DNA of 64,000 nucleotides from Fidelibacterota bacterium (GCA_018657495.1 JABHXA010000001.1:39832-103831); one strand, 5' to 3'; positions 1 to 64,000 are shown, counted from the first letter of the stretch. Program-made: numbers and translations. The notes: a model not told the origin generated them from the letters alone.

Positions 1-2049
1 GGTGGCGTTCATTCAAATTCTGGCATCCCAAATAAGGCCTTTCAAATGATGGTTGAAGGAGGCCTCCATTATGGTATTGAAGTTGAACCATTTGATATGG
101 ACCTTGATATATCCAGAGGAATAGCTGCTGATATATGGCATATTTGGAACACACAGTATCTCACACCAAACGATAACTTCTTAAGCGGGGCTTTTAAAAT
201 GCTGGATGTTTGCAATGATGTTTTCTCGCAGCATCCCTATTATTTTGATACTGCTTATGCCGGATGGTTATCCGTCGGTATTGACATTTATGCTGTTGAT
301 CTTGCCCTGACCGATGAGTTGATTTTAATCTCAAACGGGGATGACGATTCAGTAATTAACCCAGGTGAGTCATTTGATTTACATCCCATGATCACAAATA
401 TTGGGGTTAATCCAGCCACAGATGTATCAGCGTCAATAAGTTGTCTGAACGAAGGTGTTAACATTCTTGAAGATGAAATGGAATACGGATATATCGGGGT
501 AGACGAATCTGCTTATCCAACAGGATCTGGATTTCAGTTTGAATTAAACGATGATATATTGATGGGAGATCCGGGATGCACAATAACTGTCTCTGCAGTG
601 AATGTTTCCGGCCAGATAGATTCATTTGAATTTCCCTTATCATTGTTTGTGTCACTTTATCAGGAAAACTGGCCTATGATTGGTGATTTCCCAGTACAAA
701 CATCACCTGCAGTAGTGCATTATCAACAGGATGAACCATATTCCGAAATTTTCTTTGGAGATAATAATGGCTCATTCTATGGTCTGTCTAATGATGGAAA
801 TATTCTGGATAACTGGCCATATGATACTGGAGATGATATATGGGGTTCTGCAGCTATTGCAGATATTGATCTTGATGGCGAGCTGGAAATTGTCATTGGC
901 TCAAAAAATAAACATCTTTATATATTCAATACCTCCGGCGACATGTTATTGAATTTAAATATTAATAAATACATCATGGCTACCCCCGCTATTGGCAATT
1001 TGGATGATGATGATGAGCTGGAAATTGTCATTGGTACTTATGGAAGTCAAACAAGCTCAAATCAAATAATCGCTATAAATCCAGACGGATCTGCAGTTGA
1101 GGGATTCCCCGTCACTATTGTAGAAAAAATTCAAAAAGGCGCAGCACTTGCTGATTTCAATGGCAATGGAAAGATGGATATCGTCGTTGGTACGGATAGC
1201 GAGAATATCTACCTGGTTTATGATGACGGCTCAATTGCACCAGGATTCCCATTTACTGATGCCGGTGGTGACTTCAGGCAGGCGCCATCAATAATAAAAA
1301 CACATAATGATGAGCTGATCATCCTTGCCGGTTCAAAGGATGATAACTTTTATGGTATCAATTCTGACGGAACCACCAGATTTACTATTGAAACCGGTGG
1401 AAATATTTCAACGTCTTGTGGTTTCTTAGATGACCCGGACCTGGGATTAATTGTTTTATTTGGTTCTGACGATGGCTATTTATACGCAGTTAATCCAGAT
1501 GGGGCTGCTATTACAGGATGGCCAATAAATCTTAATTCTCCAGTAACTTCAACACCTTCGATTGCCGATTTGAATAATGATGGAATTCCTGAAATAATTA
1601 CCGGTACTAACGCAGGAGAAATACATATTTTTGATTTATATGGAAATATATACCAGAACTTCCCATTTGATTATCAACATCCTATCTATGGGGCTCCGGC
1701 AATTTCAGACACTGATGGCGATGGTGATCTGGAAATACTGATCGGTGCTTTAGATGGAATGATCAACCTGGATATAAAGGGTGAAGGATCTGTGGATGAT
1801 TATTGGAATCTCTTTCGCGGTAGCCTTACCCGCACCGGTTATTTTGAACCATCATCTCTGGATATTCAACCTGGCGATGTAAATGATGACCAAATTGTCG
1901 ACGTCCTGGATGTTGTAATTATCATCAATTTTGTCATGGGTAATACTACACCAGATCAACATCAGTTTGAAGCCAGTGATTTGAATGAAGATGGCATAAT
2001 TGATATTCTGGATATTGTCATGCTCATAGCAATTATCATGGGATCCTGA
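1..2049 (+). CDS. Secreted multidomain protein, 5'-truncated by the window edge: end of an M4 (thermolysin-like) peptidase domain + FG-GAP/VCBS repeats + C-terminal dockerin
   Basis: Frame 1 is open from nt 1 (GGVHSNSGIPNKAFQ matches the thermolysin-family GGVHxNSGIxNKA motif) and is continuous with the 46..2049 ORF. Repeats include DLDGELEIVIGS, DDDDELEIVIGT, DFNGNGKMDIVVGT, DLNNDGIPEIITGT and DTDGDGDLEILIGA. The last ~60 aa carry a duplicated Ca-binding segment (GDVNDDQIVDVLDVV / SDLNEDGIIDILDIV) typical of dockerins. TGA stop at 2047-2049. Confidence 0.8.
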   Translation, partial: GGVHSNSGIPNKAFQMMVEGGLHYGIEVEPFDMDLDISRGIAADIWHIWNTQYLTPNDNFLSGAFKMLDVCNDVFSQHPYYFDTAYAGWLSVGIDIYAVDLALTDELILISNGDDDSVINPGESFDLHPMITNIGVNPATDVSASISCLNEGVNILEDEMEYGYIGVDESAYPTGSGFQFELNDDILMGDPGCTITVSAVNVSGQIDSFEFPLSLFVSLYQENWPMIGDFPVQTSPAVVHYQQDEPYSEIFFGDNNGSFYGLSNDGNILDNWPYDTGDDIWGSAAIADIDLDGELEIVIGSKNKHLYIFNTSGDMLLNLNINKYIMATPAIGNLDDDDELEIVIGTYGSQTSSNQIIAINPDGSAVEGFPVTIVEKIQKGAALADFNGNGKMDIVVGTDSENIYLVYDDGSIAPGFPFTDAGGDFRQAPSIIKTHNDELIILAGSKDDNFYGINSDGTTRFTIETGGNISTSCGFLDDPDLGLIVLFGSDDGYLYAVNPDGAAITGWPINLNSPVTSTPSIADLNNDGIPEIITGTNAGEIHIFDLYGNIYQNFPFDYQHPIYGAPAISDTDGDGDLEILIGALDGMINLDIKGEGSVDDYWNLFRGSLTRTGYFEPSSLDIQPGDVNDDQIVDVLDVVIIINFVMGNTTPDQHQFEASDLNEDGIIDILDIVMLIAIIMGS

Positions 2050-4977: not shown

Positions 4978-5892
4978 TTGAAGATTAATAAACATACTTT
5001 TATCATTTTTATAGTTTGCTTTTCTTTTTCATGGATGCAATCCCTGGAGGATGAATGGGGGAAATATTTATCCATCAATAGTAAACTGCAGGTTGCAATT
5101 AGCAAAAATCAAAAGCTGAATATAAATAAAGAATCTCTGTTTATAAAAAAGCAGGAAATTAAACAAAATCAAGCCTGGTATAATGGCTGGATCAGCGAAA
5201 TTAAACTTACCAATATCAATAATTCTTTAGTGGAAATATCAGATTCTCTTATCGTTATCCAAAACAGAATAGAAACGCTTCAAGACACCAAAAATACTTC
5301 AATGCAAATTATCAAGGATAAATACAACACCTACATGCTCATAGCCGATGCCCCAAGCATGGAAGAGAATAGACTAGAATTTGTCATAAATTTGTCCAAG
5401 CTTCTTGATGTTAGCGGATTTAACTCACTTCCTCTCCCCGACTACAATTCGTTGATAAAAAATATCTGGAGTGATAAAAAAATGAAACAATTAATCTATG
5501 ATGATCTCCTTTTGATATTACATTCTAAATTAAGTTATATTGATTCCATTTTGGTCGAAAAAGAAAAGGATCTTACTTTGCTAAAGAATATACAGGACTT
5601 CCATAGTGATGTAGATTTGCAATTAAGTTCTGATAATGATATCATTTCCACAAATCTAGGTGAGGAGTATCTCTCCGATATAATTGAAGATGATGAGTCT
5701 TTTATTGATTTTGATGCCGTTATTACAGATATACAAGTTATGGAAAATTCTCATTTGTCGCCATCGGAAAATGTAAAGTCTCTATCCTTAACACCCCAAA
5801 ATAATATTGAAAGAGATGTATTGTTACTTGCACATAAACGCCTTCAATATAAGATTCTCATTGATGAGATGATGAATGAGCTTTCGCAATAA
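4978..5892 (+). CDS. Hypothetical secreted protein, probably coiled-coil
   Basis: TTG start and N-terminal hydrophobic signal (FIIFIVCFSFSWMQS). Long K/E/Q/L-rich heptad-like stretches with an acidic C-terminal half. No recognisable catalytic motif. Confidence 0.55.
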   Translation: MKINKHTFIIFIVCFSFSWMQSLEDEWGKYLSINSKLQVAISKNQKLNINKESLFIKKQEIKQNQAWYNGWISEIKLTNINNSLVEISDSLIVIQNRIETLQDTKNTSMQIIKDKYNTYMLIADAPSMEENRLEFVINLSKLLDVSGFNSLPLPDYNSLIKNIWSDKKMKQLIYDDLLLILHSKLSYIDSILVEKEKDLTLLKNIQDFHSDVDLQLSSDNDIISTNLGEEYLSDIIEDDESFIDFDAVITDIQVMENSHLSPSENVKSLSLTPQNNIERDVLLLAHKRLQYKILIDEMMNELSQ

Positions 5893-6931
5893 ATTAACAT
5901 TCTTCCTTCTTTTCGTTTTTTTATATTTCCCCCTATTATTGACATGCGCTTTTTCCGCCGAAGGACAATTACAGCTATCGTCCTATTATGACTCTAATGT
6001 TTTTGAATCAATAACTGGAGGTCTTGATAGTTACGGTTTTAAACTACACGGTAATCTCGGCCATGACTTTGAAATGAGTAATATCGCATTTTCGGCCAAT
6101 ATTTTGACACAAGCCATGTATGATCCCAGCAATAGTGAAGAGTCAAAAATGATCGTCAAATCAAATTTGATCTCAAGAATTTTGTTGACCAAATCAATAA
6201 TTAATACCTGGAAATTAACCCACTTTCAAAAAAAATTCTCAGAAAATTCCAGTTCTTATTCAAAAACGGATATCTCTACTTTTCTAAATAACCATATCAC
6301 CAAAAATTACTCGGCATGGATTGGTCTCAGACATAATTATTCAACGTACAGCATTCCCGATACTTTTAGATTTAATATCTCCACCATTGAATTGGGCAAT
6401 CTCATTAATTTTAATAAAAACGTTTCTCTTGAAGGTATCCTCTCCTATAATTATACCGACCATAAGGATCTTTTTGCAATTGACCATGGAACTGATTCAG
6501 AGCTTATCGACGGAACCTCATTGCAGCGAGATAAGGGATTAAAAGCAAATATCCACATCAAGTATCATGGAAAGAACATATTAGGGTGGTCCATTGCAGG
6601 TGAAACAATAGACTCCAACAGTTTAATATCCTCCAATCGAACATACAGTTCTCGATTATATCTTTCAGGACCCTGGTTAAAAAAAACATACTATCATTTT
6701 TTATTGAAAGTGATGAAAAAAAAATATTCACATATTAACACAGCTGGATTTAGCAGCCTGAGGGATCCTGAAACAGCAACATTGAATCAAATGCATATTC
6801 GCATTGAGCATATGCTGAAAAATGAAAATAGTATATATATTCAGCTGAATTTTCAAGAAAATGAGTCCATTTATAACTCTAAATATTTCTATAAAACTAC
6901 CATCGAAACCGGAATCAAGTACTCCTTTTAA
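5876..6931 (+). CDS. Hypothetical outer-membrane beta-barrel protein
   Basis: Signal peptide with AFS-AEG cleavage-like site. Alternating hydrophobic/polar strands rich in Y/S/N. C-terminal ...IETGIKYSF ends in Phe, as in OMP beta-signals. Overlaps the upstream gene by 17 nt. Confidence 0.6.
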   Translation: MSFRNKLTFFLLFVFLYFPLLLTCAFSAEGQLQLSSYYDSNVFESITGGLDSYGFKLHGNLGHDFEMSNIAFSANILTQAMYDPSNSEESKMIVKSNLISRILLTKSIINTWKLTHFQKKFSENSSSYSKTDISTFLNNHITKNYSAWIGLRHNYSTYSIPDTFRFNISTIELGNLINFNKNVSLEGILSYNYTDHKDLFAIDHGTDSELIDGTSLQRDKGLKANIHIKYHGKNILGWSIAGETIDSNSLISSNRTYSSRLYLSGPWLKKTYYHFLLKVMKKKYSHINTAGFSSLRDPETATLNQMHIRIEHMLKNENSIYIQLNFQENESIYNSKYFYKTTIETGIKYSF

Positions 6932-7170: not shown

Positions 7171-7602
7171 ATGAAAATTAAATCAACCTTACTATTCTTA
7201 TTATTACCAACCATGTTTTCAATATGTGATGAGTCAAATGCAAACAAACAAGAGGACCTATTTAATACTGAATGGCAATTATATAAATATAACGATAGTA
7301 CGGGCCCACTTGATATTCAACCGAGTGAAGGAGAAAGTTATACTTTAATCTTCCATGAGGATGGAATTATGGAAGCAACAGATGCATGTAATTATTGTAC
7401 AGGAATTTTTGAAATAGTAGATGGCGATTCATTAATAATTAATGAAGTTAGCTGTACTGAGATAGCATGCGCCAGTAGTAGTTGGATCGCCTCAATGAGT
7501 GGTTCATTTGTGTATAACTTATCAGGCTTTGGTTTAATTATTAGTAGAAACTCTGAATTGGACCATGATTCATATTCATATTTTTTTGAGGAGTTAAGAT
7601 GA
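7171..7602 (+). CDS. META/HslJ-like domain lipoprotein
   Basis: Signal peptide with lipobox-like MFSIC. The pattern W-x-L...DG...ACNYCTGIFEI..GDSLIINEVSCTEIAC resembles the META domain (GCN..G.Y....L.i....T.maC). Confidence 0.6.
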   Translation: MKIKSTLLFLLLPTMFSICDESNANKQEDLFNTEWQLYKYNDSTGPLDIQPSEGESYTLIFHEDGIMEATDACNYCTGIFEIVDGDSLIINEVSCTEIACASSSWIASMSGSFVYNLSGFGLIISRNSELDHDSYSYFFEELR

Positions 7603-9440
7603 AACACAAAATTCAATTTTTTGTCGCTTTTTTATTGTTACTGACCAAGGGTTTTGCCTGGTATCCTTCATATTCTGTCATGGCAACGGACTTTGTACTG
7701 CCCTATGATTTCATAAAACCGCTTACTATTCACCCAGTCGGACTCCAGGCGCTGGGACCTCATTTTTACAGTATTTATAACCATCCGGTAAGTAATGTAT
7801 TTCAAAACCCTGCCTATTTGAGCCTTGAGTCACAAAATTATATCTATTTCGATATCGCGGGAAGCGATAATGATAAAGACCGATCAAATAGTAATTCTAC
7901 CCCGGGGATATCATATGGGTATGATGACTTTTATTATATGCCTTATTACTGGTCTCCTTATCGATATGTTCATGAACCTGAAAATAGCGAACCCATTGCA
8001 AGATTTATATATTTGGGGAAACCGTATGGGGAAAACTCTCCAATCGGAATTGGCGGAACCATAGAATATTATTACGAGCAGGAGCAGTTTTATCAACCCC
8101 AATGGTATCATAATGGATGGTGGGAGATGGATGCATTAGGTAATTATTTTGACTCCGAATCCAGCGACCCGTATGGAGATTATCGGATAGCAGAATTTGG
8201 CAACAATAAATTAATGTCCAGTGGAATCCAGGCAAGCGCCATGATATCCTTTGATATACACAGCAAATTATCCCTCGGCTTGAGATTTACCATACTGGAT
8301 AAAAAAACAGATGGTGACTATGTCAATTTAAATTTTACCGACGAAAACGATTATTATGATAATTACTTGAATTATTCAGATACCAAGGCGAATCAAAATC
8401 AGGATTATAAGATGAATGACTATTCATTTGGCGTGATTTGGAACGAACCCGACAAGATGGTATTGGGTGGCTCTTTGGGGTATGTCACAGGTGAGATAGA
8501 ACGCGATTTTGTGGAAACAGATTCCACCTTTTATCACAGTTATCATTTTGAAGGACCGGACACAAACAATTATAGCCTTTATGATCGTTTCGGCGGTTCC
8601 AGATCTGATAAACAATGGAAATATGCTGGAAGTACCTCATATGGAAATCTAAATGGAGACTTTTTTCTCAATTCAGATATTACCTTGCGTTTAGCCATAT
8701 ACGGTGAAAAAAGAAAATCGGACTTAACTGAATCTGAAATAATGAGAAGAGATAATTACTACGGTTCACGATACTGGAATACATATACCGATACTGTACA
8801 TCGCTTTTTAAATATTTCGAATGTCAATTTTAGCCGCTATGGAACCGGTGACAATATTCATAAACGATTCAAGCTGAGTATAGGGGCTGATGTGATTGTT
8901 TCAACAAAAATCAGATTTATTGGCGGTGTAGTTGTGGATAACATTGATGTTGATATGGATGCCCATGAACCATTTATCGGTAGTAAGTATTCATATTCAG
9001 AAAGAGAAAATTACTCATATATAAATTGGCAATTACAAGAATCTACCCAAGATGAGGAAAAAGAATTCCATTGGTATCGTAATGAAGATTTCTTTACGGT
9101 TGCTATTCCAACTGGCATCATAGTGAAAGCCGGGAGCAATTTAGAATTTCAACTGGGTCTGACAAAAGTTATAAAGAAAATAGATATTAAAGAAGGATAT
9201 GACCTCATTGTATATGACGAATCTACCGTTACCATCCAGGATGGAGTTACAACGGTATCCTCTGATTCGTCATATGTTGAGGGGCATCTTTTCCCGGCGA
9301 CAAATGAGTTCATGAATGAATATGAAATGAATGCCGGCATTTCTTTCAAGTATAAAGAGTATTTCAAATTAACCTGTGCCCTAAAAGAGTCAATATTAGA
9401 GCCTAGTTATTACAAAATAGGGGTAGAGTTCATTTTTTAA
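7599..9440 (+). CDS. Hypothetical large outer-membrane beta-barrel protein
   Basis: ATGA overlap with the upstream gene. Signal peptide, an N-terminal ...NVFQNPAYL motif (NPA-type motif seen in many FCB/spirochaete OM barrels), extremely Y/D/N/G-rich, C-terminal ...YKIGVEFIF ending in Phe. Confidence 0.65.
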   Translation: MKHKIQFFVAFLLLLTKGFAWYPSYSVMATDFVLPYDFIKPLTIHPVGLQALGPHFYSIYNHPVSNVFQNPAYLSLESQNYIYFDIAGSDNDKDRSNSNSTPGISYGYDDFYYMPYYWSPYRYVHEPENSEPIARFIYLGKPYGENSPIGIGGTIEYYYEQEQFYQPQWYHNGWWEMDALGNYFDSESSDPYGDYRIAEFGNNKLMSSGIQASAMISFDIHSKLSLGLRFTILDKKTDGDYVNLNFTDENDYYDNYLNYSDTKANQNQDYKMNDYSFGVIWNEPDKMVLGGSLGYVTGEIERDFVETDSTFYHSYHFEGPDTNNYSLYDRFGGSRSDKQWKYAGSTSYGNLNGDFFLNSDITLRLAIYGEKRKSDLTESEIMRRDNYYGSRYWNTYTDTVHRFLNISNVNFSRYGTGDNIHKRFKLSIGADVIVSTKIRFIGGVVVDNIDVDMDAHEPFIGSKYSYSERENYSYINWQLQESTQDEEKEFHWYRNEDFFTVAIPTGIIVKAGSNLEFQLGLTKVIKKIDIKEGYDLIVYDESTVTIQDGVTTVSSDSSYVEGHLFPATNEFMNEYEMNAGISFKYKEYFKLTCALKESILEPSYYKIGVEFIF

Positions 9441-9506
9441 AATTTGAATCTGTTCATCATTAATATCATTCACATAATCAATCAATTTCTTAAGAAAGGT
9501 TCAATT

Positions 9507-9893
9507 ATGAAATTTATTATTTTAATACTGACAGCAACCATTTTTACTGCCTGCAATACATCAGATAGTCTTATGGAACCCAAACGGGGTCGTGAATTTG
9601 AAATTCAATACGGCCAGAGCATCACACTTGAGGATCAATCTCTAACTATAGAATTCACAATGGTTGAAAACGATTCTCGTTGTCCCCAGGGAGCACTCTG
9701 TTTTTGGGAAGGAAATGCCCGCATTGGCATTGAAGTGTCTCAATTTCCATTCTATCTAAATACATCCTTAGAACCAAGAGAGATTGATCATTTTGGTTTT
9801 AGGATTGAATTGATATCAGTCAATCCTTATCCAGTAGTCGATGAGAACATTAATCTTGAGGATTACCGTATTACACTTACTGTCAGTGAATAG
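9507..9893 (+). CDS. Hypothetical lipoprotein
   Basis: I prefer ATG 9507 (MKFIILILTATIFTACNT, lipobox, AAGAAAGG upstream) over the TTG at 9444 in the ORF track. No recognisable domain. Confidence 0.6.
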   Translation: MKFIILILTATIFTACNTSDSLMEPKRGREFEIQYGQSITLEDQSLTIEFTMVENDSRCPQGALCFWEGNARIGIEVSQFPFYLNTSLEPREIDHFGFRIELISVNPYPVVDENINLEDYRITLTVSE

Positions 9894-9935
9894 AAAATTC
9901 TGACTATTAAACCTTTTCTAGGGAGAATATGAAAT

Positions 9936-10325
9936 ATGAAAATAATGTTGATTATCTGTTCATTGTTATTAATATCGTGCAACAATACAATCAACGAACA
10001 TTCCGACAGTGTTGCCCCTTTAGGAAAATGGGGATTTATCGAATCAGATAGTACCAGGGATATTTATGAAAAGGTCGACGAATTTGATCAAGCTCAAGGG
10101 GGGTTCACTTTTGCTCAAAATGGTGTCTTTTATTTAAGATCTTTTGGGTTTTGCGGAACCCCACCCGTAGCGTATTATGATGTGGAAGGCGAATGGGAAT
10201 TGATTGATGATAGTTTATTCAGGATTACATATTCTGAAGATTGGTTTGAAACAAACAGTATAAACACCATTGAGATTGTATCCTTAAGCGAAAATGAGTT
10301 ACATATTATTTGGGACCATCTCTAA
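9936..10325 (+). CDS. Hypothetical lipoprotein (lipocalin-like size)
   Basis: Signal plus lipobox LLISCNN. GGAGAA lies upstream of the ATG. Confidence 0.6.
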   Translation: MKIMLIICSLLLISCNNTINEHSDSVAPLGKWGFIESDSTRDIYEKVDEFDQAQGGFTFAQNGVFYLRSFGFCGTPPVAYYDVEGEWELIDDSLFRITYSEDWFETNSINTIEIVSLSENELHIIWDHL

Positions 10326-17267: not shown

Positions 17268-17612
17268 ATGTTCAACTTATTCAAAACAAAAGAAAAATCA
17301 ACAATTTCCATTAACGATGCCAATTGGGACGAAATTATAAATTCAAATTCTGGCCCCGTGATGGTTGATATATGGGCACCCTGGTGCGGTCCATGTAAAT
17401 TAATTGGACCCATTGTTGAAGAGCTGGCTGAAGAATATAAAGGGAAAATTATTATCGGAAAATTGAATGCCGACGAAAACACCAAGTCTCGGCAGATGGG
17501 TATCCGCAGTATTCCAACCCTCTTGTTTTTTAAAGATGGGAAAAAAGTGGACCAAATAACCTGCGCTCAACCCATGAATATTATCCGTGAGAAATTCAAT
17601 AAATTAATTTGA
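17268..17612 (+). CDS. trxA: Thioredoxin
   Basis: VDIWAPWCGPCK active site, GIRSIPTLLFFKDG, 114 aa. Confidence 0.95.
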   Translation: MFNLFKTKEKSTISINDANWDEIINSNSGPVMVDIWAPWCGPCKLIGPIVEELAEEYKGKIIIGKLNADENTKSRQMGIRSIPTLLFFKDGKKVDQITCAQPMNIIREKFNKLI

Positions 17613-17648: not shown

Positions 17649-19085
17649 ATGAAGAAGTTTCTTCCTTTTATCATCCTGTTATCACTTGGCTGTGGTGGAA
17701 CCAATAACAAGATTGTCAACCAGAACCCAGATGATCTTCGCCGTTTAACAATTCTATATACAAACGATGAACATGGATGGATGCTTCGTGAAGGACAAAA
17801 CGGTGGTGCAGCTCAGTTGATGAATACCTGGATTGAGGAAGAAGGATATGTTGAAGATGGTCCCTTCTTGATTTTAAGCGGTGGTGATATGTGGACTGGT
17901 CCGGCAATATCAACATGGTTTAAGGGTGAATCTATGGTTGATGTGATGAATTCAATGAATTACGATGCTGCCGCAATCGGGAACCACGAATTTGATTTTA
18001 ATCAGTTGACGCTGCTGGAAAGATCGCAACAGGCAAACTTTCCATTATTATCTTCAAATATGAGATCAGAGAGTTCAGGCGAAATCGTCAATCCTGCTCT
18101 GCCATATATTATCAAAACCGTAAACGATATTTCAGTTGGCATTATCGGATTGACTGCAACCGAAGCAGATGATATCAATTTTCCCGAAAACGTTGCCGGT
18201 ATTGATTTTATTGACTATCAGGATGTTTTATATGAAATCGTCCCTCAAATTAAATCTGAAGGCGCTGAATTAATTATAATTGTTGGGCATATATGCAGTT
18301 TTGAGATCACCAGCCTTGTTCCTCTTGCAAAGGAACTGGGGATTGCTCTAATCGGCGGTGGACATTGTCATGAGACTGTTTCAAAAATTCAAAATGGCAT
18401 TGGTGTGATGGAAGGTGGATCATATTTGTCCGCATATGCAAAGGCCGAAATTGATTTTGATATCATTACCAACACCGTGGTGGATATAGACGTTTCTACT
18501 CATAATAATACGGGATTGACCAAAAATTCTGTTGTCGATTCAGTCATATCTATCTGGCAGGGGCAAATGGATTCGGAGCTCTCTCAGGTGATTGGTTATG
18601 TTGCACAGAATATTAGCAGCAATTCGGATGCAATGTATAATCTCATTACCGATGCATGGTTATGGTCTTATCCGAATGTGGATATCGCAATTACAAATAC
18701 CGGTGGAATCAGGGCTGATATGCCTCCAGGTGATATTACATTTGAAACCTGGGTAGGAATACTCCCATTCGAAAACTTTCTTTATGTTATTGATATCACC
18801 GGTGAGCAATTAATTCAAAATATACCCTACTATGTGATTGGCGGCATGACCACGATTCCAGAGATAATGCTCATTGATGGTACACCAATTCATCCAGATT
18901 CGGTATACTCTGTTTTAGTTACAGATTATATTTATAGTACCTCTGAATATTTTCAAACTGCTGATCCAGACCCATTAGATACTTCTATTCATTGGCGGCA
19001 ACCTGTTATCGACTGGATCCAGAGCCTGAATACAAACATCGATGATCCTCTGGATAATTATTTGGACTATGAACCACGGCAATAA
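17649..19085 (+). CDS. Lipoprotein 5'-nucleotidase / metallophosphoesterase (UshA-like)
   Basis: Lipobox LSLGCGG. Metallophosphatase motifs YTNDEHG, GGDMWTG, GNHEFD and GHCH. C-terminal 5'-nucleotidase substrate domain. Confidence 0.85.
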   Translation: MKKFLPFIILLSLGCGGTNNKIVNQNPDDLRRLTILYTNDEHGWMLREGQNGGAAQLMNTWIEEEGYVEDGPFLILSGGDMWTGPAISTWFKGESMVDVMNSMNYDAAAIGNHEFDFNQLTLLERSQQANFPLLSSNMRSESSGEIVNPALPYIIKTVNDISVGIIGLTATEADDINFPENVAGIDFIDYQDVLYEIVPQIKSEGAELIIIVGHICSFEITSLVPLAKELGIALIGGGHCHETVSKIQNGIGVMEGGSYLSAYAKAEIDFDIITNTVVDIDVSTHNNTGLTKNSVVDSVISIWQGQMDSELSQVIGYVAQNISSNSDAMYNLITDAWLWSYPNVDIAITNTGGIRADMPPGDITFETWVGILPFENFLYVIDITGEQLIQNIPYYVIGGMTTIPEIMLIDGTPIHPDSVYSVLVTDYIYSTSEYFQTADPDPLDTSIHWRQPVIDWIQSLNTNIDDPLDNYLDYEPRQ

Positions 19086-22172: not shown

Positions 22173-23210
22173 TTATGAAGCTGATTCCAGAAACTTGGTC
22201 TTTTGATCCTGAAAATATTGATAATCCGGGCTGATTTTAATGGCCTTTTCAATCGCTTCAACTGCTTCATCAATTCTCCCAAGTTTCCAGAGAACTTCTG
22301 CTTCAGTATCAATGATGTTTGCCTGGGTATCCGGTTTATCAGCAAGTAATGATACGGCGTGACGAACCTTCACCAGAGCTTCATCAAGCTGAGTCTCCAA
22401 TTCGGTCATCCGCCATGCAAAAGCATTCAAGGCGGAATAGTCATCCGGGTACTTGTTTGACCATTCGGTTAATACGATTAATTCATTTTCAGTATCTTTT
22501 TCAGAAGCATAAAATCGTGAAACTTTTGAGTATGCTTCATAAACATATTCTGAAGAAGGATAAGCCTTAATGAAAGATTCTATCGGTGCTTTATCTCCAT
22601 CATAGAATTTTTTCATGGCAAGATAATATCTGGCTCCGTTAATTTCTTCTGAGACATTTCCTGGGGAATTCACTAATAATTTTTCGTATAGTTCTGTTGC
22701 CCCATCATCATTTCCCATCTCTACATATTTACCTGCAAGTGCTGAGAGTAATTCATTGTTATTAGGGTCATTTGTCAATCTATCCTTTAAATCAGGTAGA
22801 GTGTTATTTCCGTCCAGAATGTCCTGTACACGAACGATAAAATCATCTGGTTTTCTGTATCCGATAATGCGATCAATTTCATCTTCATTATTATTGACGA
22901 AAACCATTTGGGGTACACCATTTATATTATATCTTTCAGCTATCTCTTTTCCAGGCTCTTTGCCAGCATTTATCTTTATGCTTATAAACTGTTCAGAAAA
23001 TTCAATTACATTGCCATCTGAAAATGTATCGGCATCCAGCCGAGTACACCATACTCATGTATCAGTATAGAATTCAAGCATTACCAGGCGATTGCCTGAT
23101 GTGTTAATTGCTTCCTCAAATCCACCTTTAAACCAGCCGATTGAAGAGGGCGCTTCGCTACAAGATATCAACAGAAAGAGTAAACTGCTGAATAATAAAC
23201 CTTTTTTCAT
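22173..23210 (-). CDS. Candidate selenoprotein: thioredoxin-fold (UxxC) + TPR lipoprotein, read through an in-frame TGA at 23057..23055
   Basis: ORFs 23055..23318 and 22173..22907 share one frame and are separated by one TGA only. The joined sequence ...RLVMLEFYTDT-U-VWCTRLDADTFSDGNVIEFSEQFISIKINAGKEPGKEIAERYNINGVPQMVFV... matches the FYxDWCGWCK thioredoxin-like layout, with TGA at the first Cys. Start ATG 23210 (MKKGLLFSSLLFLLISC lipobox) is preceded by AGGAG. The C-terminal ~190 aa are TPR-like. Confidence 0.7.
23025..23048 (-). promoter_or_regulatory. Candidate bacterial selenocysteine insertion sequence (SECIS) hairpin downstream of the in-frame UGA
   Basis: RNA: UGA GUAUGG [UGUA C UCGGC UGGAU GCCGA UACA]. 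It has a 9-bp stem (4+5) with a bulged C and a 5-nt loop UGGAU. The stem starts 6 nt after the UGA, and the loop is ~16 nt downstream. Confidence 0.5.
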
Positions 23211-23394
23211 AAAAACTCCTGTTATTTTAGTCCGAAACTTAAATATTAATTGTTTCATTACCGAATTGAAATATTTACTTTGTCGTGCATCTGATATTTT
23301 ATTCCGCATCAGCTTCATTCACAGAGCACCATTGACAATTATATATAGAAAGCTATCGAGTGTCAAACAGACAATTCTGAGCAATAATTTTCTT

Positions 23395-61367: not shown

Positions 61368-64000
61368 CTATTTCAGCATAACCATTTTCTTTGTGTCATT
61401 AAATCCATTACCATTTAAAGTATAGATATAGAGACCTGCAGAAACTTCGCTTCCATTGGCATCTTTACCATCCCAAAGAATGCTATGATAACCCTGAGTG
61501 ATGAATTGACCACTAACTAAGGTTCTAATCTGCCGACCAGTAATATCAAATACTGTGAGGCTGATTTTCATATCTGCCGGAATGGTGAAATCTATGGTTG
61601 TGCTTGGATTGAATGGATTAGGATAATTCTGACCCAATTCAAATGTAGTTGGAATCGCATCACCATTTGTAACAACTATGGATCCAGAAGTAAGAGGATT
61701 CATACCAAACCAATTATTATCCAAATCAGCATTGACATACAGTTCTCTATTCTGATTTTGGCTCCATACTCTTAATTCTATTGGATCGCCAGTTTCAAAA
61801 CCAGGTAGTTCAAAACCGTATTCATCAAATGCTTTCCATGCTGCAATTACTAATGGTTTGTTCGCATCAATAATTCTGGTGGCACCAACAACTTCGCCAT
61901 AGGCATATACTGCAACTTCATCACCGGCTTCAATCATTCCATCCATTTCAGTAAGGATTATTGCATAAGCATCACCTGTCTGAACTATATCATATTGCTG
62001 TGATTGGCTGTCCAACTTGTATTGTTCACCAAACTCGTTGTCAGATAATCTGGCACCATTGGCAAGACCTCCACCCATTGGATAGACAAAATCTACCGGA
62101 TTAGGTCCATTCACGAATACTTCATATCCTTCACCAGGTTCGAGATCGGTGAGGGTAAAGATATTCAATGATGGTACATAGAATCCACCTGAATCATCAC
62201 TAATGATTAGGATATCATCGTGATAGCTTCCAAATGCGTCCATGGCTGACATACCTACGGAGAATGGATATCCAAACATGTTTTTCATGAATGGAGACCA
62301 TCCATAAACAGAACCAGCATCCATCATTGGACCTGTCACAGAAACAGTAACTGGTGATTGTCCATTAACAAATACTTTATATCCTTCTGTATTTGATAAA
62401 GTCCCGATACCATCGATGCCATATGCAGGTACATAGAAGTTGCCACTATCATCAGATGCTATGAGGAAATCATCTCCAAGTACAGTATCTGTGCTCATAT
62501 CTTCCGCAGTCACATAGAATGAAATCATATTATTCATAAATGGATTCACAACAATATCCTGTGTTTCTTCACCAGCATCAAATGGATTGGTGAATACAGC
62601 ACATTCAGTTGCGGTGAAATATGGCGATCCTGTTTCGTCTGATACAATTGCTGATGTGAAACAGACATCCGTTTCAGAATCATCAGGAGCATTAACATTC
62701 ATGGTAACGGTGACAACGGCTCCAGAACCGGCAGAAATCACAGATCCATTGAATGAGAATCCAAGGATTCTGAAATTCCCATCCAGTTCACTTCCAGTGA
62801 TATTCCATCCATCTGGTAATCTTGGTGTGCCAGCAGCAGAAGCAAACGAATAATAATCAGGTAAATCCTGAATATCCATCTGGAATCCAGCAACCTGATC
62901 GGTATTATTCATGTGTACTTCAAATGTATTATCTGTAGTCTGAACTAATGAAAGCATGACATCGGGTAATCCGACTTCAATGGTTCCAACATTTGATGTA
63001 TAGAACATGCTTTGTCCGATTTCATTGGAGAATACAGACAGTTCAGGATTCATAAATAATTCGGCAGTACCATTTGGTGCATCTTCATTTACTTGATACG
63101 TAACCGTGAATAATTCCCCTGCACCTGGTTCGATTGGAACCAATGTGAGGCTAAACCAAAGGGCGGTAAGCTCACCATTATTGTCGCTGAAACTAAAGAA
63201 TGCTGGTTCAGGTATTCGACCAGAAGGAACAACGTCAACAGCTGTTACAGATTCTGGTAGATCACCCAGGTGCAATTCAAATCCATAAATAGGATCGTCA
63301 TTATCAATATCAACATAGATATCGACCATACCACCCTGATCAACAGCCTCTGTTGCGCTGGAGATCATCACTTCGATACCATCTGGTACTAATGTGACTG
63401 TTCCGCAGCCGGGGGTAACACCATAACCAATACCATTTTCATCAGAAATAACTTCATTGGCAGTACATAGTGAGACTTCAGCAGGTTGTCCAACCATGGT
63501 AGTGCTGAAGGTAATTTCAAAGATCGAGCCTTCTCCTGCAGCAATGGTTGTACCTGTGAATGAGAAGCCAAGAATTCTAGAAACACCATCATTCATCTCA
63601 GAGGTTGAAAGTGCCCAGTCTCCTGGTACCCTGGCAGAACCTTCTACAGAGTCAATCACCAGATAATCAGGTACATCAATTAGATCAACCTGAACACCGC
63701 CAACGAGACCGTCATTGGTCATTGAAAGTGTGACCGTAACATTTTCGCCGGCATTTGCAGTAGCATCAGATAATGACATCAAGACAGAGCCCATAGGTGT
63801 TGCAGATGCTTCGTTTGAATCTTGTGATTCAACACCACCAGAGTAAAGCGCTGTAACCACATAATAGTATGTGGTGCCATTTGTTACACCTGTATCTGTG
63901 TATTCAGTAACAGAAGGGTCAGTAGTTTCAATAACCGAGTAACCGGAGCCTGAAACCAGAGAGCGATAGACATTGTACCCTGTGAGATCACGGGTATTAC
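61368..64000 (-). CDS. Large surface protein, 5'-truncated by the window edge: FN3-like end + 3 cohesin-like modules + tandem beta-domains + T9SS type-A C-terminal sorting domain
   Basis: The frame stays open upstream of the GTG at 63860 to nt 64000 (...TGVTNGTTYYYVVTALYSGG, an FN3-type end). Three ~130-aa modules share the pattern (V/I)xLSL...G..V.V......V.G(V/F)Q(V/M)D(L/I).D(V/L)PDY...GFSF.G..I.AG.G. Two tandem repeats follow (FLIASDDSGNFYVPAYGI / ILIISDDSGGFYVPSLNI). The C-terminus NYPNPFNPSTTIDFTIP...LTVFDITGRQIRTL...GYHSILWDGKDANGSEVSAGLYIYTL matches the T9SS sorting domain. Confidence 0.8.
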   Translation of the reverse strand, partial: NTRDLTGYNVYRSLVSGSGYSVIETTDPSVTEYTDTGVTNGTTYYYVVTALYSGGVESQDSNEASATPMGSVLMSLSDATANAGENVTVTLSMTNDGLVGGVQVDLIDVPDYLVIDSVEGSARVPGDWALSTSEMNDGVSRILGFSFTGTTIAAGEGSIFEITFSTTMVGQPAEVSLCTANEVISDENGIGYGVTPGCGTVTLVPDGIEVMISSATEAVDQGGMVDIYVDIDNDDPIYGFELHLGDLPESVTAVDVVPSGRIPEPAFFSFSDNNGELTALWFSLTLVPIEPGAGELFTVTYQVNEDAPNGTAELFMNPELSVFSNEIGQSMFYTSNVGTIEVGLPDVMLSLVQTTDNTFEVHMNNTDQVAGFQMDIQDLPDYYSFASAAGTPRLPDGWNITGSELDGNFRILGFSFNGSVISAGSGAVVTVTMNVNAPDDSETDVCFTSAIVSDETGSPYFTATECAVFTNPFDAGEETQDIVVNPFMNNMISFYVTAEDMSTDTVLGDDFLIASDDSGNFYVPAYGIDGIGTLSNTEGYKVFVNGQSPVTVSVTGPMMDAGSVYGWSPFMKNMFGYPFSVGMSAMDAFGSYHDDILIISDDSGGFYVPSLNIFTLTDLEPGEGYEVFVNGPNPVDFVYPMGGGLANGARLSDNEFGEQYKLDSQSQQYDIVQTGDAYAIILTEMDGMIEAGDEVAVYAYGEVVGATRIIDANKPLVIAAWKAFDEYGFELPGFETGDPIELRVWSQNQNRELYVNADLDNNWFGMNPLTSGSIVVTNGDAIPTTFELGQNYPNPFNPSTTIDFTIPADMKISLTVFDITGRQIRTLVSGQFITQGYHSILWDGKDANGSEVSAGLYIYTLNGNGFNDTKKMVMLK

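Follow-up and report, generated by a model that had tools for sequence, protein, structure and literature searches.

Does the small stem-loop directly downstream of an in-frame UGA codon in a gene of a Fidelibacterota bacterium serve the insertion of selenocysteine (Sec) at this codon, or is it a by-product of the coding sequence? The gene lies on the minus strand of a DNA stretch of 64,000 nt (GCA_018657495.1, JABHXA010000001.1:39832-103831), which was analyzed over its full length and is called the window in the following; all positions are counted from its first nucleotide. A first-pass annotation had proposed, from a fold drawn by eye, that the stem-loop is a bacterial selenocysteine insertion sequence (bSECIS). 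The locus was compared with its orthologs, and the results show the hairpin to be very probably a bSECIS situated within the coding sequence of a Marinimicrobia gene that encodes an exported lipoprotein combining a thioredoxin fold, a TPR region and a U-x-x-C motif, in which U stands for Sec.

Structure and position of the stem-loop

Read on the minus strand, the RNA continues from the UGA (23057-23055) with GUAUGG, UGUA, a bulged C, UCGGC, UGGAU, GCCGA, UACA and UUUU. The helices UGUA/UACA and UCGGC/GCCGA comprise 9 bp around the single bulged C (23044) and are capped by a loop of 5 nt. The stem begins 6 nt past the UGA, and the distance between the UGA and the loop is 16 nt. The sequence and geometry given in the first-pass annotation (9 bp, bulged C, UGGAU, 6 nt, ~16 nt) were thereby matched base for base.

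Folding with ViennaRNA yielded the same hairpin. It was the minimum free energy (MFE) structure and the centroid structure for positions 23000-23060 (-14.5 kcal/mol), with no alternative structure preferred, and it was again both MFE and centroid structure inside a context of 141 nt. The 24-nt hairpin by itself has a folding energy of -10.3 kcal/mol. Two G.U pairs (G23050.U23023 and G23049.U23024) lengthen it to 11 bp and -12.2 kcal/mol, and the loop with the upper 4 bp in isolation has -5.5 kcal/mol.

A further hairpin of 7 bp (AUCAGGC-AAUC-GCCUGGU, 23083-23100 on the minus strand, -10 kcal/mol) was noticed 26-43 nt upstream of the UGA. It helps the 141-nt context to a z-score of -2.69. This hairpin was dropped as a candidate: it lacks conservation in the orthologs, even at 95% protein identity, and is probably incidental.

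Sec and Cys codons in orthologous genes

For the comparison, 160 loci were fetched from genome and metagenome collections. Nearly all of them are labelled Marinimicrobia, Neomarinimicrobiota, Fidelibacterota or FCB group. Five contigs with a Marinimicrobia-type gene (L028, L030, L076, L077 and L080) are labelled Gammaproteobacteria or Lentisphaeria, which probably reflects binning or labelling problems and not a true distribution of the gene.

The protein search revealed two length classes. Full-length homologs of ~346-414 amino acids carry a CxxC motif, and shorter homologs of ~240-297 amino acids begin right after the redox motif, as is expected if gene callers stop at the UGA. The motif codon was mapped in 151 loci, where it is TGA (126), TGT (16) or TGC (9); a motif search added 8 TGA loci overlooked by the mapping. 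Altogether, the codon is TGA in 134 of the 159 orthologous loci and TGT or TGC in the other 25, with both flanks conserved in-frame. Complete or near-complete genomes with the UGA-form include CP070656.1 (L048) and the metagenome-assembled genome of JABMOW010000104.1, and the ortholog L081 from oxygen-minimum-zone waters has 95% protein identity to the window gene. In the window gene the translation of 23210-22173 is open but for the one TGA, with 51 codons upstream of it, counted from the ATG, and 293 codons downstream. The UGA (U52) aligns to the first Cys of WCxWC in the full-length homologs. Thus, the Sec position corresponds to the N-terminal Cys of the CxxC motif in the Cys homologs, which is what was looked for in a thioredoxin-fold selenoprotein.

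Nucleotide sequences of 54 nt, starting with the UGA or its Cys counterpart, were aligned without gaps for 108 distinct Sec-forms (alignment A2) and 24 Cys-forms (alignment A3). Columns are counted from the U of the UGA.

Conservation of the upper helix and the loop

The selectively maintained element consists of the upper 4 bp (23042-23039 with 23033-23030) and the loop U-G-G-A-N. In the 108 Sec-forms, 99.8% of the cells of this core helix (CGGC/GCCG) are paired; none of 500 column shuffles matched this value, and controls with slid partners gave at most 71%. Pair 16-28 is CG in 106 sequences, UA in one and broken in one. Pair 17-27 occurs as GC (82), GU (14), UA (9) and AU (3), pair 18-26 as GC (86), GU (12) and AU (10), and pair 19-25 is CG in all 108. 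Compensatory changes are found at three of the four core pairs, and the consensus structure calculated by RNAalifold consists of the same four pairs, found independently. The loop nucleotides U20, G21, G22 and A23 are invariant in 108/108 Sec-forms. Moreover, a search for the loop-and-helix motif measured the spacing from UGA to loop in 133 orthologous TGA loci, and it was exactly 16 nt in every one of them.

Conservation is lower outside the core. Of the Sec-forms, 73% retain the fifth pair, U15-A29, and the lower-stem pairs 13-30, 12-31 and 10-33 are retained in 46%, 64% and 69%, respectively. Pair 11-32 reaches 100%, yet both of its sides are fixed by coding; T10 and G11 belong to the UGU codon and are invariant across alignment A2. 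The core-containing hairpin is longer than with shuffled flanks (median 7.5 bp vs 5 bp). The lower stem and the bulged C were considered as parts of the functional core and rejected, as they show no in-register conservation. The first-pass annotation had taken the bulge and the full stem together as the element. Of this, the upper 4 bp and the loop proved to be conserved; the lower stem is variable, and the bulged C of the window is not conserved among the Sec-forms.

Selection on the RNA

Helix and loop are selectively maintained only in the UGA-containing orthologs. The fully paired core with the UGGA loop is present in 107 of the 108 Sec-forms but in only 2 of the 24 Cys-forms (Fisher p ~1e-21), and the share of paired core cells in the Cys-forms is 49%. 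The R-L-D peptide encoded here is also conserved in the Cys-forms, with free codon choice. Its Leu codon is CUG in 108/108 Sec-forms vs 11/24 Cys-forms and in 16% of the Leu codons of the window genes; the third base of this codon is a synonymous site and at the same time the loop nucleotide G21. At the Arg position, CGG is used by 84 of the 108 Sec-forms, corresponding to 88% of the 95 which have an Arg codon there; in the background, CGG makes up 12.5% of Arg codons. The residue following Asp is restricted to Ala or Val (GCN/GUN) in the Sec-forms, and is E, K, A, S or Q in the Cys-forms.

The pairing in the Sec-forms is conserved through compensatory changes that alter codons. The states observed are CAGC/GCUG (Arg to Gln), CUGC/GCAG (Arg to Leu), UUGC/GCAA, in which the helix is likewise kept, and CGAC/GUCG (Ala to Val), the last one through the G.U intermediate CGGC/GUCG. 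One ortholog (L008:1133-1186) shows UGGC/GCCA. Here, C16 changed to U and G28 to A, which converts Arg to Trp and Asp to Asn; its nearest relatives, ~95% identical (distance ~0.05), have CGGC/GCCG. This double change is a very recent compensatory pair altering two residues, with a sequencing error being possible in a sequence known from a single contig of a metagenome-assembled genome. The family represents a clean natural case in which an RNA structure overrides the protein sequence by means of compensation that changes amino acids. The proposal that a bSECIS is laid over the coding sequence is supported by this pairing among orthologs, by the Sec/Cys codon pair and by the fit to the published bSECIS model described below.

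The two Cys-forms that retain the full CGGC-UGGAU-GCCG hairpin (L049:2651-2704 and L060:2624-2677, with the codons TGC and TGT) have Sec-forms as nearest relatives in a tree calculated from the part of the protein encoded downstream of the hairpin. In both, Sec was probably converted to Cys recently and a remnant of the SECIS was left behind. Remnant bSECIS-like structures 3' of Cys codons have been described before as a consequence of such conversions (PMC1794560, Fig. 4). As in the described cases, a Cys codon is combined with a complete retained hairpin; the likeness concerns orthologs of other genomes and not the window.

Alternative explanations

The hairpin might be a by-product of the conserved C-x-R-L-D-A-D-T codons without any function at the RNA level. 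The peptide x-R-L-D-x-D-T-F is indeed conserved in the Cys-form homologs too, coding dictates both sides of pair 11-32, and the single-sequence folding energy is unremarkable. However, the Cys-forms spell R-L-D with AGG, CGC, CGT, CGA or AAG and with TTA, TTG, CTA or CTC and lose the helix, whereas in the Sec-forms the synonymous G of the Leu codon is invariant and compensatory changes keep the pairs while altering amino acids. A codon by-product is therefore barely conceivable. It is likewise highly improbable that the UGA is a real stop codon, owing to an assembly error or because the gene is split or a pseudogene, with the hairpin being irrelevant or acting as an intragenic terminator or attenuator. 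Public protein models do begin past the UGA, and a terminator scan flagged the core hairpin together with UACAUUUUCA (23029-23043, tail to 23019, minus strand). Against this, 134 loci, which come from many independent assemblies, have a TGA at the identical codon, this TGA aligns with the catalytic Cys of the full-length homologs, and the conserved in-frame flanks comprise a signal peptide upstream and the 293 codons downstream. The U-run of the supposed terminator consists only of the Phe codon and one further base and lacks conservation in the orthologs of alignment A2.

The UGA could also be decoded as an amino acid other than Sec, either because it is reassigned to Trp or Gly or by near-cognate read-through stimulated by the hairpin without SelB. 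Trp stands at the Sec position in two proteins from databases (P0007 and P0041), and the Sec machinery was not found in the 64-kb window or the related loci. The DNA of P0007, though, has TGA at this position (L092); therefore, the Trp comes from the translation table that was used, in which UGA is read as Trp. In the window UGA is an ordinary stop codon, as 22 of 56 open reading frames (ORFs) end in TGA. Every TGA of the window with at least 30 stop-free codons on each side was inspected. There were 74 such candidates. Apart from the one at 23057, they turned out to be antisense or out-of-frame or to reflect genes that merely lie next to each other, so that the window contains no further in-frame TGA that is credible. 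Consequently, UGA is not reassigned. In addition, UGA alternates only with Cys codons at the redox-active Cys, which is a hallmark of Sec/Cys pairs (PMC13188914), and loop and spacing fit a SelB-type model. A decoding as another amino acid is thus very unlikely.

A bSECIS function of the hairpin has to be weighed against a number of observations. The annotation had called a 9-bp hairpin at this position unlikely to be incidental. Folding energy did not bear this out, because the 61-nt segment has a z-score of only -0.99 and 33 of 200 dinucleotide shuffles were equally or more stable; the comparative data did. The 4-bp core is all that is left of the stem in 13 of the 108 Sec-forms, and in 56% of them the best core hairpin is weaker than -7.5 kcal/mol (44% pass this value). 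The aligned sequences are related to each other, so the cell counts exceed the number of independent events. The window as a whole gave no Rfam match at gathering thresholds, and in the region 22900-23250, scanned with E up to 10, only spurious matches (E > 2) appeared. Binding of SelB and insertion of Sec are predicted by analogy, as is the part of the stem that would melt. Finally, selA, selB, selD and tRNA-Sec are absent from the 64-kb window and from 790 kb of related loci. This search was carried out with NCBIfam and Pfam on the window ORFs of at least 110 amino acids, save four that overlap longer ORFs. ARAGORN detected no tRNA in the window, and in the related loci it found only tRNA-Gly and tRNA-Glu and no tRNA-Sec. 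The sole lineage-level hint found is the listing of SelD for SAR406 single-cell genomes (PMC5029168).

Gene and product

The features of the locus are summarized in Table 1. The start of the gene at 23210 is supported because AGGAG lies 5 nt upstream, and the orthologs likewise start with MKK.... A promoter-like site with perfect sigma-70 consensus, located 128 nt upstream of the ATG, suggests that the gene has a strong promoter of its own.

The N-terminus MKKGLLFSSLLFLLIS-C contains an L-x-x-C lipobox motif and was presumed to be a lipoprotein signal. A Cys at the position matching the lipobox Cys is present in the aligned homologs. Among solved structures, those most closely related to the N-terminal domain belong to a putative disulphide isomerase (2kuc) and to the C-terminal domain of DsbD. 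Full-length Cys homologs align across 93-100% of the protein. The product is predicted to be an exported lipoprotein-type protein with a thioredoxin fold, a TPR region and the motif U-V-W-C.

Table 1. Positions of the selenoprotein gene, its predicted signals and domains and the stem-loop in the window.
Feature	Position	Strand	Remarks
Predicted selenoprotein gene	22173..23210	-	345 codons + stop, read through the in-frame UGA
In-frame UGA, predicted Sec codon (residue 52)	23055..23057	-	first position of the U-V-W-C redox motif
Shine-Dalgarno sequence AGGAG	23216..23220	-	5 nt before the ATG at 23210; read from the sequence
Promoter-like TTGACA-17-TATAAT	23338..23366	-	12/12 consensus positions; consensus scan, pattern match only
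Predicted signal peptide and lipobox, MKKGLLFSSLLFLLIS-C	23160..23210	-	from the translation
Thioredoxin-fold domain, residues 40-124	22839..23093	-	Pfam Thioredoxin_2 PF13098, E 3.7e-12
C-terminal TPR region, residues ~137-334	22209..22802	-	Pfam TPR_2, TPR_14, TPR_19, TPR_CcmH_CycH
Full hairpin	23025..23048	-	9 bp, bulged C 23044; extends to 23023-23050
Parts of the hairpin	UGUA 23048-23045; C 23044; UCGGC 23043-23039; UGGAU 23038-23034; GCCGA 23033-23029; UACA 23028-23025	-	
Core helix, 5' arm CGGC	23039..23042	-	columns 16-19; Arg codon and base 1 of the Leu codon
Apical loop UGGAU	23034..23038	-	columns 20-24; U, G, G and A invariant in Sec-forms
Core helix, 3' arm GCCG	23030..23033	-	columns 25-28; Ala codon and base 1 of the Asp codon
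UGU, resolving Cys of UxxC	23046..23048	-	also 5' end of the lower stem

Public protein models of the family (P0001-P0006; window 22173-22907) start past the UGA and go under the names 'TPR repeat protein' and 'hypothetical protein'. This mis-annotation costs them the signal peptide and the redox motif. With UGA in 134/159 loci of a major, mostly uncultured marine phylum, the gene would represent a widespread selenoprotein. An account of selenium use in the phylum Marinimicrobia was not found in the literature searched.

The compact signature C-UGGAN-G at +16 is usable to find further selenoprotein genes in these genomes. A search for TGA, a 4-bp helix and a TGGAN loop found no second selenoprotein gene in the 790 kb of window and loci: wherever an in-frame match to the signature was flanked on both sides by long open frames, it belonged to the orthologous gene. 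None of the NCBIfam selenoprotein models reached its cutoff. The best one was TsoB (NF045694) with 51.5 bits vs a cutoff of 805, and this match spans the C-terminal DsbD-like domain only.

Proposed mechanism

By analogy with fdhF of E. coli, the mRNA 3' of the UGA would form the stem-loop described above. When the UGA enters the A site, the lower stem, which starts 6 nt past the UGA, would be drawn into the mRNA channel and melt. The upper helix of 4-5 bp, closed by C19-G25 and carrying the loop U20-G21-G22-A23-N24, would remain folded at the channel entrance. There, the C-terminal domain of SelB, in complex with GTP and Sec-tRNA(Sec), would bind loop and helix. SelB would then deliver the Sec-tRNA to the UGA in competition with RF2, and the Sec at residue 52 would become the attacking residue of the thioredoxin active site. 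It has been reported that the SECIS has to become unwound in its lower part inside the 30S subunit's mRNA tunnel and that only the upper part is intact at UGA decoding (PMC4513850). Such unwinding would be the reason why strong selection is seen only on columns 15/16 to 28/29.

A more far-reaching possibility, which we put forward tentatively and consider somewhat doubtful, is that SelB of Marinimicrobia recognizes a unit of only 13 nt (a C-G-closed helix of 4 bp with UGGAN, 16 nt from the UGA) without a stable lower stem. The constraint of this unit would then dictate residues of the active-site helix, and the unit would be a signature of the lineage. This proposal is based on the 13 of 108 orthologs with the core only, on the restriction to Ala or Val after R-L-D and on the replacement of R by Q, L or W. 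If it is true, the signature could read out the whole undescribed selenoproteome of an abundant ocean phylum, and the lipoprotein with thioredoxin fold and TPR region would be the most widespread selenoprotein there, systematically mis-annotated.

Other observations in the window

A canonical thioredoxin gene (17268-17612, plus strand) is followed by a gene for an UshA-like 5'-nucleotidase (17649-19085, plus strand). The latter gave a weak match to the model 'UshA-like (seleno)protein' (NF041198, E 4.5e-16), which is below the cutoff, and contains no in-frame TGA. At one end of the window (46-2049, plus strand) a protein with FG-GAP/beta-propeller and dockerin type I domains is encoded. At the other end (61368-63860, minus strand) an ORF shows a weak, sub-threshold Pfam cohesin match (E 3.4e-10) with no single stretch passing. 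The two sequences hint that a Marinimicrobia genome encodes a cohesin-dockerin pair. Six ORFs of 143-613 amino acids on the plus strand (7171-10325 and 4978-6931) had no Pfam match at E <= 1e-6; this run lies downstream of a gene pair for a histidine kinase and a sigma-54 response regulator.

Comparison with known bSECIS elements and selenoprotein families

The hairpin was compared with the bSECIS model of Zhang and Gladyshev (bSECISearch) as summarized in PMC13188914, Fig. 2. This model comprises a loop of 3-9 nt, an upper stem of 4-16 bp, a spacing of 16-37 nt, an MFE of at most -7.5 kcal/mol and a G as the first or second loop nucleotide, with G or U as the usual next base (PMC13188914). 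The window element agrees with it in all constraints: its loop of 5 nt has G in position 2 and another G after it, its upper stem is 4 bp or longer, the spacing is 16 nt and the energy is -10.3 kcal/mol. Counted up to the bulge, the stem comprises 5 bp, and its full length is 9 bp; the conserved upper stem has 4 bp. Spacing and upper-stem length are at the lower limit of the model. The energy filter would miss many members of the family, as 44% of the 108 Sec-forms reach -7.5 kcal/mol. A conserved G ~20 nt downstream of the UGA has also been described (PMC4605307); the loop Gs found here lie 18-19 nt past the UGA.

With regard to the protein, the selenoprotein families already listed include the UxxC thioredoxin-fold 'thiol:disulfide interchange protein' (PF13098; PMC13188914) and, in the GOS survey, 'Trx-like 2' (cd02953; PMC2398784). 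Features shared with the UxxC family are the thioredoxin fold, PF13098 as the best Pfam match, the UxxC motif, the likeness to the C-terminal domain of DsbD and the existence of Cys homologs. In contrast to the published description of the family, the protein described here has a predicted lipoprotein signal and a C-terminal TPR region of ~200 residues, and its subfamily appears confined to Marinimicrobia-type contigs. No description of the lipoprotein and TPR architecture with a Marinimicrobia distribution was found in the literature searched.

The bSECIS elements of E. coli fdhF and fdnG share with the hairpin the location in the coding region directly 3' of the UGA. In E. coli fdhF, the first nucleotide of the minimal element is nt 15, at a distance of 11 nt from the UGA, and the element displays GC-AGGUCU-GC. 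Both RNAs possess a G-C-rich upper helix with C-G as the closing pair and, on top of it, a small loop containing consecutive Gs, namely G22 and G23 in fdhF and G21 and G22 in GC-UGGAU-GC, counted from the U of the UGA. In both cases the conserved part begins at nt 15-16, and the lower stem would need to melt in the ribosome. The differences concern the loop, which has 6 nt in fdhF and 5 nt (UGGAN) here, with U after GG in fdhF and A here, and the bulge, as a conserved bulged U is present in fdhF and has no counterpart here, where the bulged C is not conserved. Furthermore, the conserved helix has only 4 bp in the element described here, whose binding by SelB is predicted. Overall, the RNA is a typical bSECIS at the small and close end of the range of the model, which follows the known mechanism and introduces no new principle.

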